This document shows, piece after piece, positions 17,485 to 18,502 of a stretch of DNA of 64,000 nt. Location: the sequence record OP557970.1; one strand, given 5' to 3'. The stretch is from Escherichia phage ph0021. The notes below the pieces were generated by a model, which saw only the letters and a list, made by a program, of their open reading frames with translations, had not been told where the DNA came from and made no database searches. A program made the translations under genes and the position numbers. The first letter of the stretch is position 1; the number at the start of each line of letters is the position of its first letter.

Positions 17485-17560
17485 TGGTCGAGGCAGTAGG
17501 GATCGAACCTACGACCTAGGACTTAGAAGGTCCTTGCTCTTCCTTCTGAGCTATGCCCCG
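17485..17560 (-). tRNA. tRNA-Arg (anticodon UCU), CCA encoded
   Basis: Hand-folded cloverleaf: 7-bp acceptor, GCUCAG D-arm, anticodon loop CUUCUAA, T-loop GGTTCGATC, discriminator A. Confidence 0.8.
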
Positions 17561-17564
17561 TAAT

Positions 17565-17640
17565 TGGGGTGACCGATGGGAGTCGAACCCATGACTACGA
17601 GAATCACAATCTCGAGTTCTACCAACTGAACTACGGCCAC
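17565..17640 (-). tRNA. tRNA-His (anticodon GUG), CCA encoded
   Basis: Hand-folded: anticodon loop UUGUGAU, discriminator C73; no G at -1 encoded (U at -1). Confidence 0.7.
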
Positions 17641-17754
17641 ATTAATACCTACTCCAACAATCAAGATGTCTTCACACGAAATTAAGAGAAGAGTGATCAG
17701 TTCAACCCCTATAATCGCGTCAAGTAGATATTAATGTGACAGTTGTCACAAATT

Positions 17755-17829
17755 TGGCGGACGTGATAGGATTCGAACCTATAACCAATCGCTTAACAGG
17801 CGATCGCTCTGCCATTGAGCTACACATCC
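17755..17829 (-). tRNA. tRNA-Asn (anticodon GUU), CCA encoded
   Basis: Hand-folded: anticodon loop CUGUUAA, discriminator G73, T-loop GGTTCGAAT. Confidence 0.75.
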
Positions 17830-17833
17830 AAAT

Positions 17834-17920
17834 TGGTGGGGAGTGATGGAGTCGAACCACCCGAGTCGCAATGACAATGGATTTACAGTCCACACCGCTA
17901 CCTCTACGGGATAACTCCCC
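17834..17920 (-). tRNA. tRNA-Tyr (anticodon GUA), type II, CCA encoded
   Basis: Hand-folded: anticodon loop CUGUAAA, long variable arm, discriminator A73. Confidence 0.75.
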
Positions 17921-17929
17921 AAATTAATT

Positions 17930-18004
17930 TGGTGGCCCTGGGTGGAATTGAACCACCATCTGGCGATTATGAGTCGCTTGCTTGAACCTTCCAGCTACAG
18001 GGCC
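17930..18004 (-). tRNA. tRNA with CAU anticodon (Ile by analogy to T4, or Met)
   Basis: Hand-folded: anticodon loop CUCAUAA; sits next to tRNA-Thr where T4 has tRNA-Ile. Confidence 0.7.
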
Positions 18005-18005
18005 T

Positions 18006-18081
18006 TGGTGCTGATTGACGGAATCGAACCGCCGACATCCTCATTACAAGTGAGGTGCTCTACCTACTGAGCTAAATCAGC
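18006..18081 (-). tRNA. tRNA-Thr (anticodon UGU), CCA encoded
   Basis: Hand-folded: anticodon loop CUUGUAA, 7-bp acceptor GCUGAUU/AAUCAGC. Confidence 0.8.
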
Positions 18082-18086
18082 AAAAC

Positions 18087-18176
18087 TGGCGGAGGCGATA
18101 GGATTTGAACCTATGAGTCGCCGGAGCGACTGCCGGTTTTCAAGACCGGTGCATTAAACCACTCTGCCACGCCTCC
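18087..18176 (-). tRNA. tRNA-Ser (anticodon UGA), type II, CCA encoded
   Basis: Hand-folded: anticodon loop CUUGAAA, long variable arm, discriminator G73. Confidence 0.8.
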
Positions 18177-18178
18177 AG

Positions 18179-18252
18179 TCTCCGTGGCAGGATTTGAACC
18201 TACGACATTCTGCTCCCAAAGCAGACGCTCTACCAAACTGAGCTACACGGAG
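18179..18252 (-). tRNA. tRNA-Pro (anticodon UGG), CCA not encoded
   Basis: Hand-folded: anticodon loop UUUGGGA; 3-prime end abuts tRNA-Ser 2 nt away (Pro-Ser dimer as in T4). Confidence 0.8.
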
Positions 18253-18262
18253 TAAATTGAAT

Positions 18263-18336
18263 TGGAGCGGATAATGAGAATCGAACTCACATCATCAGAT
18301 TGGAAGTCTGAGGTAATGCCATTATACGATATCCGC
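18263..18336 (-). tRNA. tRNA-Gly (anticodon UCC), CCA encoded
   Basis: Sequence GCGGATATCGTATAATGG...CTTCCAA...TCCGCTCCA recognised as T4-like tRNA-Gly; discriminator U73. Confidence 0.85.
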
Positions 18337-18341
18337 AAATT

Positions 18342-18428
18342 TGGTGCGAGAAGTGGGACTCGAACCCACAAGGAAATCATTCCGCAGCATTTTAAGTGCT
18401 GTGCCTTTACCAATTTGACCATTCTCGC
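18342..18428 (-). tRNA. tRNA-Leu (anticodon UAA), type II, CCA encoded
   Basis: Sequence GCGAGAATGGTCAAATTGGTAAAGGCACAGCACTTAAAATGCTG... recognised as T4-like tRNA-Leu. Confidence 0.85.
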
Positions 18429-18429
18429 G

Positions 18430-18502
18430 CTGGGAATAAAGGACTCGAACCTTTGCATCTAGCAGTCAAAGTGCTATGCCTTACCAACTTGGCTAATTCC
18501 CA
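18430..18502 (-). tRNA. tRNA-Gln (anticodon UUG), CCA not encoded
   Basis: Hand-folded: anticodon loop CUUUGAC, U1-A72 pair, discriminator G73; 3-prime end abuts tRNA-Leu (Gln-Leu dimer as in T4). Confidence 0.8.

Follow-up and report, generated by a model that had tools for sequence, protein, structure and literature searches.

A T2-type tRNA array of Escherichia phage ph0021 contains a conserved tRNA-His gene without an encoded G-1

The 64,000-nucleotide stretch of Escherichia phage ph0021 analyzed here (sequence record OP557970.1; hereafter the window) encodes an array of eleven tRNA genes on its minus strand, one of which, tRNA-His(GUG), carries no guanosine at position -1 (G-1). We consider it probable that this region is a Tequatrovirus tRNA operon of the segB-less T2 type, which supplements codons and contains a G-1-less tRNA-His that is cut at the canonical site. 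As a tRNA array, the region is a standard T-even feature whose variability is already explained by SegB homing and recombination. Its residual value lies in the G-1-less tRNA-His, which is real, conserved and undiscussed in the literature searched, and in an unannotated leader in front of it. G-1 is the main identity element that histidyl-tRNA synthetase (HisRS) relies on in E. coli, yet a tRNA-His without it is well kept by coliphages, by their relatives on Klebsiella, Salmonella, Enterobacter and Aeromonas, and by unrelated mycobacteriophages, and it is kept despite a relative depletion of His codons, shown for the open reading frames (ORFs) of this window. This amounts to a natural experiment on whether G-1 is truly indispensable in vivo, or else it is evidence that certain phage tRNAs do something other than decode. 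What is reported below on gene content, synteny, conservation, covariation and codon statistics was observed directly.

Gene content, allelic type and codon demand of the array

Eleven tRNA genes, and no more, were called by ARAGORN in the window, all on the minus strand at 17485-18502. All eleven passed the gathering score of the Rfam tRNA family (29 bits), ten of them with 59-75 bits and the long-arm tRNA-Tyr with 30.2 bits, and no Rfam family besides tRNA reached its gathering score anywhere in the window. An earlier note, made from the letters of this DNA alone, had listed the same eleven genes, and its coordinates and anticodons were confirmed by ARAGORN. In the direction of transcription the order is Gln, Leu, Gly, Pro, Ser, Thr, CAU, Tyr, Asn, a 114-nucleotide spacer, His and Arg. 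We found the 1.2-kb array region (17400-18600) to be 100% identical to 'Pseudomonas phage PsgM02F' (OR584013.1) and 98-99% identical to many Tequatroviruses of E. coli, Shigella, Yersinia and Salmonella. Altogether 966 phage records match the region; in 265 of them at least 80% of the array is present at high identity, and the tRNAs are annotated in most. The array is already known and ordinary, being the tRNA cluster of T4/T2-like phages annotated in hundreds of genomes.

The location matches that of the T-even cluster, between the ipI/57B/57A/gene 1 block and the e-gene side and on the shared strand; upstream in the identical record stand a 57B-like 'RNA ligase', a tail fiber chaperone and a dNMP kinase, as in T4 and T2. 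The T4 cluster (NC_000866, 70.9-72.5 kb) shares genomic position and strand with the window array, and the 5' leader together with Gln-Leu-Gly-Pro-Ser-Thr is collinear with T4 at 94% identity over 660 columns, with identical dimer junctions. At these junctions, tRNA-Gln ends in ...CCCA-G73-C and is followed directly by G1 of tRNA-Leu, and tRNA-Pro ends in ...GGAG-A73-C-U, followed by G1 of tRNA-Ser. These are the only two genes in which the encoded CCA is incomplete (first C alone); the other nine encode it in full. The dimers had been described as like those of T4, which is right for the two CCA-less junctions but does not extend to their neighbors, for tRNA-Ser and the CAU tRNA encode CCA in the window, while tRNA-Ser and tRNA-Ile of T4 do not.

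After tRNA-Thr the two clusters differ. T4, which carries eight tRNAs according to its record, continues with its own tRNA-Ile(CAU), segB, its own tRNA-Arg(UCU), rnaD and rnaC, whereas in the window the segB site between the CAU tRNA and tRNA-Arg is occupied by Tyr, Asn, the leader and His. There is no segB, as the ORF list shows no ORF between the CAU tRNA and tRNA-Arg in the window. Moreover, the CAU and Arg tRNAs are genes other than those of T4 (64% and 61% identity; 47/74 and 48/79 positions), and T4 has no counterpart to the 116-aa ORF that parts Arg from rnaD in the window. The earlier note was right that Tyr, Asn and His are extra relative to T4 and lie between the CAU tRNA and tRNA-Arg, and its phrase 'expanded relative to T4' is correct as a count; as a description of the locus it does not hold, because this is a known alternative allele of the segB-less T2L type, present in the 265 records, with different CAU and Arg genes.

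The T2L tRNA region was reported to lack segB and to contain tRNA-Met(CAU), Tyr, Asn and Arg as well as the ORFs trna.1 and trna.2, and T4 SegB was shown to cleave preferentially inside the tRNA-Asn gene of T2L, turning the region into the T4 form (Brok-Volchanskaya et al. 2008; PMC2330249). In the T2 record (AJ880101; LC348380) the order is Gln, Leu, Gly, Pro, Ser, an ORF, Met, Tyr, Asn, Arg and an ORF. T2/T2L thus shares with the window the Met(CAU)-Tyr-Asn-Arg block, then the trna.2 ORF, and the absence of segB, but the trna.1 ORF of T2 stands where the window has tRNA-Thr, and T2 is without the 194-nucleotide module of leader and tRNA-His, which in the window sits exactly between Asn and Arg. 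T6 carries a subset, namely Gln, Leu, Gly, Thr, Met and Tyr, followed by segB. On sequence comparison, the window array is a segB-less recipient allele of the T2L type, differing by tRNA-Thr and by the inserted leader and tRNA-His, and T4 differs from it mainly by the SegB homing cassette. Several such mosaic alleles are known, reshuffled by homing and recombination, and this array is one of them rather than an expanded T4 state.

The identity of the CAU tRNA deserves a separate remark. ARAGORN and most deposited records call it Met. Its acceptor stem (GGCCCUG/CAGGGCC) contains C4-G69 and C5-G68, which are the TilS determinants of tRNA-Ile2, and the 5' strand equals that of T4 tRNA-Ile. Judged by this stem and by the 3.3-fold enrichment of AUA codons in the window ORFs, the CAU tRNA is probably a tRNA-Ile2 that carries lysidine and reads AUA.

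We compared the codon usage of 73 long ORFs of the window, which covers about 39% of the genome, with a codon table of E. coli (18,569 phage codons in all). The eight A-ending codons that the T4-type tRNAs decode were enriched, namely AGA (5.4-fold), AUA (3.3), GGA (2.9), ACA (2.8), UCA (2.8), UUA (2.1), CCA (1.9) and CAA (1.5), and Tyr (1.60-fold) and Asn (1.45-fold) ranked second and third in amino-acid enrichment. The tRNAs of the array would add to the host pool for the codons that an AT-rich phage overuses, that is, for these eight and for the Tyr and Asn codons. Codon supplementation is reportedly the classical explanation for the tRNAs of AT-rich phages, and is said to go back to Bailly-Bechet and colleagues in 2007; the codon counts of the window support it.

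The tRNA-His gene and its structured leader

Direct reading of the junctions bore out the earlier observation that tRNA-His combines U at position -1 with C73. The gene reads U(-1)|GUGGCCG...CGGUCAC-C73-CCA, with a 7-bp acceptor stem, G1-C72 and an encoded CCA; position -1 is window position 17641 ('a' on the plus strand) and hence U, and position -2 is A. For comparison with the host we used a 77-nucleotide tRNA-His sequence including G-1, which matched an annotated Salmonella tRNA-His at 100%. The phage gene and the E. coli/enterobacterial gene are identical at 61 of 76 positions (80%) in a base-for-base alignment, with U for G-1. Enterobacterial hisR shares with the phage gene the G1-U2-G3-G4-C5 start, C73, CCA and the anticodon loop UUGUGAU, but it encodes a G-1 that pairs with C73 and is kept by RNase P, whereas the phage gene has U-1. 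The same alignment rules out a register shift in which the first G of the phage gene would be its 'G-1'.

Homologues of this tRNA-His were collected from Tequatrovirus, Moonvirus (Merlin), Jiaodavirus (Mineola, Roth19, Kpn6N, KP185), Gelderlandvirus (Melville), Karamvirus (Pet-CM3-4, CW742, EnC07), Kanagawavirus (Kosakonia 305, PEi26), the Aeromonas phages Ah1 and PX29, and Mycobacterium phage Bxz1; the tRNA-His of T5 is too divergent for the BLAST queries used and stands outside this set. U-1 and C73 were present in every homologue, that is, in all Straboviridae examples checked and in mycobacteriophage Bxz1, and U-1, C73 and CCA did not vary among 11 aligned phage homologues (the window and ten others). 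The tRNA-His of Burkholderia phage FLC9 has G at -1, as in E. coli. Across 13 tRNA-His sequences, pairing held in 100% of the cloverleaf cells, 14 of the 21 pairs showed compensatory change, and G1-C72, U2-A71, G3-C70, the anticodon loop and C73 were constant. Because the cloverleaf is kept by compensation and the end, loop and C73 are invariant, this conservation pattern marks tRNA-His as a genuine tRNA under purifying selection and no decaying copy.

Absence of G-1 was not confined to this family. We scanned IMG/VR with a pattern for tRNAs of this overall form with a GUG anticodon, taking at least four tRNAs within 1.5 kb as an array. Among the distinct array-borne tRNA-His genes, 32 had G-1/C73 and 17 were without G at -1, mostly U-1/C73. 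Since 17 of about 50 distinct array genes (about a third) are without it, loss of G-1 is recurrent among phage-borne tRNA-His genes. The Bxz1 tRNA-His (79.7% match) occurs in 160 Mycobacterium phage records. Our literature searches found no paper discussing a phage tRNA-His without G-1.

The 114-nucleotide spacer between Asn and His folds at -32.7 kcal/mol (z = -4.4 against shuffles). Its 3'-most 95 nucleotides (17641-17735) are found again immediately upstream of tRNA-His in 355 phage records, which span at least five genera, and among the 60 matches listed none annotates the element, barring overlaps with an adjacent tRNA-Gln or a hypothetical protein. The leader consists of a 14-bp closing helix (17722-17735 with 17641-17654) around a variable long hairpin and a 4-bp hairpin. 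In ten distinct leaders, the 14-bp helix and the 4-bp hairpin were paired in 98.9% of cells with nine compensated pairs; none of 500 shuffles was as good, and slid controls paired at 32-47%. For the long hairpin in the interior, at least three versions unrelated in sequence were seen. The closing helix ends in the pair A17735:U17641, in which U17641 is U-1 itself, so that the helix adjoins G1 of tRNA-His; this A:U(-1) pair is invariant in all ten long leaders, and minimum free energy (MFE) folds of leaders from three other genera likewise close on U-1. At the leader position, Kanagawaviruses have only a 12-bp hairpin and Aeromonas phages a weaker hairpin, and Bxz1 has no leader.

No Rfam match at E <= 1 was found within 17641-17754, and with a covariance model of the leader one copy was detected in the window, whereas T4, T2 and T6 gave none. 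The covarying 95-nucleotide leader is a concrete unannotated RNA element without an Rfam family. A second candidate copy at 42686-42727 on the plus strand (16.8 bits, E = 0.12) is probably a chance match. The spacer as a homologue of rnaC or rnaD was ruled out, as the true homologues lie downstream at 16859-17119 and the leader model is blank in T4, T2 and T6. The idea of a promoter for a second sub-cluster was unsupported, because no sigma-70-like promoter was found on the minus strand in the Asn-His spacer. Further, pairing between the leader and the tRNA, predicted by MFE folding (leader flank with the 5' half of the tRNA) and by RNAalifold (a helix running 4-5 bp into the acceptor strand), was not adopted, because in half of the genera the flank belongs to the tRNA-Gln in front, as its 3' end, and because thermodynamic folding ignores tRNA tertiary structure.

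The leader-His module follows tRNA-Asn in the window and tRNA-Gln in Moonvirus, Jiaodavirus and Gelderlandvirus (Merlin, Mineola, Melville). These three phages have larger arrays, with tRNAs for Lys, Asp, Trp, Ile and other amino acids, and some of the arrays enclose segB-like homing endonuclease genes. In Salmonella phage STP4-a the leader is intact, and tRNA-His is gone after its first ~5 bases, with a different sequence next. In the window, the small hairpin at 17736-17749 resembles a His-like tRNA that has lost its interior, with the 5' acceptor strand left fused to the 3' one; it may be a recombination scar at the insertion point of the leader-His module.

Predicted maturation and charging, and possible roles, of the tRNAs

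Processing sites, charging and function are deduced from the observations above. The tRNA genes would be transcribed as polycistronic precursors; for T4, a cut upstream of tRNA-Gln that depends on RNase III is reported in the classical literature. The 5' ends would be made by host RNase P, and the 3' ends of the CCA-less Gln and Pro would be finished by host exonucleases and the CCA-adding enzyme. The tRNA-His and its structured 95-nucleotide leader would have been acquired as one module.

Canonical cleavage by RNase P prefers U at position -1. With the E. coli enzyme, the cut between -2 and -1 is favored by U-2 and G-1, and G-1 and C73 disfavor the canonical cut via the G-1:C73 pair (PMC5499578). 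None of the positive determinants of the -2/-1 site (U-2, G-1, the -1:73 pair) is present in the phage tRNA-His. Given its U-1, its A-2 and the lack of any possible -1:73 pair, RNase P would be expected to cut at the canonical U-1|G+1 bond, and the mature tRNA-His would then have a 7-bp acceptor stem and, judged by these determinants, likely start at G+1 without G-1. The earlier note had argued that this tRNA would depend on a G-1 added after transcription or on processing by RNase P in an unusual way. This claim received no support, as the -2/-1 determinants are absent and U-1 is usual for the canonical cut, and no positive evidence was found for either route. PMC5499578, citing Himeno 1989 and Connolly 2004, puts the drop in E. 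coli HisRS efficiency on a tRNA that lacks G-1 at more than 100-fold. By E. coli rules, a G-1-less tRNA-His is thus expected to be a poor substrate of HisRS, yet not an impossible one.

Several points weigh against this explanation as a whole. The tRNA-His is strictly conserved in spite of the >100-fold loss for HisRS; C73 on its own mildly disfavors the canonical RNase P cut (PMC5499578); and U-1 is locked within the 14-bp helix. Because C73 disfavors the canonical cut and U-1 is helix-bound, the actual cleavage site could differ from the predicted one. Moreover, His is the least enriched of the twenty amino acids in the window ORFs (0.65-fold), so that supplementation accounts for ten of the eleven tRNAs but not for tRNA-His. 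Lys, finally, is the most enriched amino acid, yet the array has no tRNA-Lys.

The position of U-1 at the end of the leader helix raises the alternative that tRNA-His keeps a residue at -1, either because the helix, stacking on the acceptor stem, shifts RNase P or another nuclease to the -2/-1 site, leaving a 5'-phosphorylated U-1 (pU-1) whose phosphate could partly satisfy HisRS, or because a G is added opposite C73. The invariance of the A:U(-1) pair in ten long leaders, the covariation of the 14-bp helix and the MFE folds of the three other genera that close on U-1 would fit the first route; the invariant C73 could serve as the template for a Thg1-like enzyme, besides being a negative determinant of canonical cleavage; and strict conservation of an otherwise poorly charged tRNA does need explaining. 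However, the determinants of the -2/-1 site are missing, and the entire 3' strand of the leader is paired, so that no helix end is defined at -1. The G-1-less tRNA-His of Bxz1, moreover, stands leaderless two nucleotides after tRNA-Glu, which separates G-1 loss from the leader, and we know of no G-adding enzyme (Thg1 or Thg1-like protein) in E. coli or T-even phages. We regard retention of a -1 residue as quite unlikely.

Another explanation would deny that tRNA-His works in translation, and would make it the passenger of a mobile cassette of leader and tRNA, or the RNase P handle of a leader-based non-coding RNA. The module is an insertion relative to T2 with varying neighbors (Asn in the window, but Gln in Moon-, Jiaoda- and Gelderlandvirus), STP4-a retains the leader without tRNA-His, and a covarying leader, depleted His codons and the missing G-1 would all suit it. 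On the other hand, compensatory change preserves all four cloverleaf stems, and no variation is seen in the GUG anticodon, in C73 or in the G1-U2-G3 end, be it between genera or in the unrelated mycobacteriophages, whereas a bare processing handle would need neither an anticodon arm nor His identity elements. This makes a non-translational passenger or handle very unlikely in our view.

A broader proposal would be that Straboviridae and, independently, Bxz1-like mycobacteriophages and others have dispensed with G-1 under a G-1-dependent HisRS. Here the T-even leader would either program an unusual 5' maturation or timing (pU-1 kept, delayed release) or be a new stable small RNA, and the tRNA would function through an unrecognized mode of charging, as a decoy or as a regulator. 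We hold this to be somewhat unlikely. The most economical idea for the leader is that it may serve the processing or the stability of that part of the precursor which holds His and Arg, or may be released by RNase P as a stable small RNA like T4 species 1/2.

Roles against host defense bear on Tyr, Asn and His in particular. Anticodon nucleases of the colicin E5 type attack tRNAs with GUN anticodons (the queuosine family). As read from their anticodons, Tyr(GUA), Asn(GUU) and His(GUG) are three of the four GUN tRNAs; the fourth, Asp, is also carried by related genera. This grouping is suggestive, and the three could be primarily counter-defense spares, replacing or decoying for cleaved host tRNAs, rather than codon supplements. 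The tRNA-Tyr of T6 overcomes Septu cleavage of host tRNA-Tyr (PMC13096335), and the window tRNA-Tyr, a target class of PtuAB/Septu, is identical to it at 85 of 87 positions. Phage tRNA-Tyr and tRNA-Lys overcome retron-Eco7 and PrrC (PMC11555353), phage tRNA-Thr(UGU) partially rescues cells from P2-OLD (PMC12445682), and rescue by phage tRNA-Tyr, tRNA-Lys and tRNA-Thr has been described for PtuAB, AriB/PrrC and OLD (PMC11555353, PMC12445682). Neither E. coli nor phage tRNA-Asn rescued cells from PrrC170 (PMC11555353).

It also speaks for a primary counter-defense role that codon demand fails to explain His. Amino-acid demand, however, explains Tyr and Asn equally well, and to our knowledge no rescue role has been assigned to tRNA-His or tRNA-Asn. 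The anticodon loop of the phage tRNA-His (UUGUGAU) is that of the host, leaving no loop change by which to evade a loop-reading nuclease, and no E. coli defense system targeting tRNA-His was found in the literature searched. Further, a replacement tRNA must be chargeable, and the absence of G-1 argues against this. We consider a primarily counter-defense function of the three tRNAs possible but on balance doubtful. Beside codon supplementation, our preferred explanation of the array, an anti-defense role would come second and be non-exclusive: Tyr and Thr(UGU), at least, would by their similarity be of classes for which it has been shown that they stand in for host tRNAs lost to tRNA-cleaving defenses.

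Features of the region and comparison with known systems

The features of the transcription unit are listed below. The earlier note covered the tRNA genes as far as tRNA-Arg, and did not see the leader, the trna.2-like ORF, the rnaD and rnaC homologues or the terminator.

Table 1. Features of the tRNA region, in the order of transcription (window positions)
Feature	Position	Strand	Basis or remark
5' leader of the array, upstream of tRNA-Gln	18503..18560	-	near-identical to T4 (alignment); fold has an 11-bp hairpin
tRNA-Gln(UUG), upstream half of Gln-Leu dimer, CCA not encoded	18429..18502	-	identical to T4
tRNA-Leu(UAA), CCA encoded	18342..18428	-	identical to T4
tRNA-Gly(UCC), CCA encoded	18263..18336	-	ARAGORN, Rfam, direct reading
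tRNA-Pro(UGG), upstream half of Pro-Ser dimer, CCA not encoded	18178..18252	-	63/74 identical to T4 tRNA-Pro
tRNA-Ser(UGA), CCA encoded; T4 has UAA there	18087..18176	-	ARAGORN, direct reading, T4 alignment
tRNA-Thr(UGU), CCA encoded	18006..18081	-	anticodon class of phage tRNAs rescuing from P2-OLD (PMC12445682)
CAU tRNA, T2L type, CCA encoded	17930..18004	-	47/74 identical to T4 tRNA-Ile
tRNA-Tyr(GUA), type II, CCA encoded	17834..17920	-	85/87 identical to T6 tRNA-Tyr
tRNA-Asn(GUU), CCA encoded	17755..17829	-	homologue of the T2L gene with the preferred SegB cleavage site (PMC2330249)
Small hairpin GUGAC-AACU-GUCAC	17736..17749	-	direct reading, fold
Structured leader adjoining tRNA-His, 95 nt	17641..17735	-	fold, covariation, 355 phage records
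tRNA-His(GUG), CCA encoded, U at -1	17565..17640	-	61/76 identical to E. coli tRNA-His
tRNA-Arg(UCU), T2-type gene, CCA encoded	17485..17560	-	48/79 identical to T4 tRNA-Arg
116-aa ORF, equivalent to T2L 'trna.2' / T2_136	17116..17466	-	phrog_3355 (E = 8e-53); T2 synteny
rnaD homologue (T4 stable RNA species 2), center diverged	17004..17119	-	74% identity to T4
rnaC homologue (T4 stable RNA species 1)	16859..16997	-	138/139 identical to T4
Intrinsic terminator closing the unit, as in T4	16785..16808	-	10-bp stem, 7 G-C pairs, U-run

With a single mismatch, the 5' end of the 116-aa ORF agrees closely with primer #24 of PMC2330249, and no Pfam match was obtained for this ORF. The small ORFs around the array, at 17116-17466, 18589-19104, 19101-19394 and 16437-16730 on the minus strand, belong to the function-unknown families phrog_3355, 2290, 2023 and 2280, respectively, and show no Pfam domain. 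The rnaD and rnaC homologues are left unannotated in the identical GenBank record (OR584013.1). The deposited host of that record is Pseudomonas coronafaciens pv. garcae, though its array is 98-99% identical to those of E. coli Tequatroviruses; the host assignment of PsgM02F looks doubtful, or its host range unusual.

Among known systems, the rescue tRNAs offer one comparison. They comprise tRNA-Tyr of T5/T6 against retron-Eco7/Septu, tRNA-Lys against PARIS/PrrC and tRNA-Thr(UGU) against P2-OLD, and the window shares with them a near-identical tRNA-Tyr and a tRNA-Thr(UGU).

A second comparison concerns tRNA-His. In alpha-proteobacterial G-1-less tRNA-His, the discriminator and the first pair are altered (A73, U72). 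The phage tRNA-His differs from this type in keeping the E. coli-type C73 and G1-C72, and it must use the G-1-dependent HisRS of the host. A tRNA-His without encoded G-1 is found in some alpha-proteobacteria (Caulobacter), where HisRS has co-evolved with it (PMC3064791), and also in some protists (PMC3561963, PMC4338351).

The leader, finally, can be set beside the stable RNAs species 1 and 2 of T4 (rnaC, rnaD) and the leader before T4 tRNA-Gln. It shares no sequence with any of these, but like them it is a small structured non-coding segment co-transcribed with tRNAs and bounded by tRNA processing sites, and the tRNA that it adjoins is each time tRNA-His.

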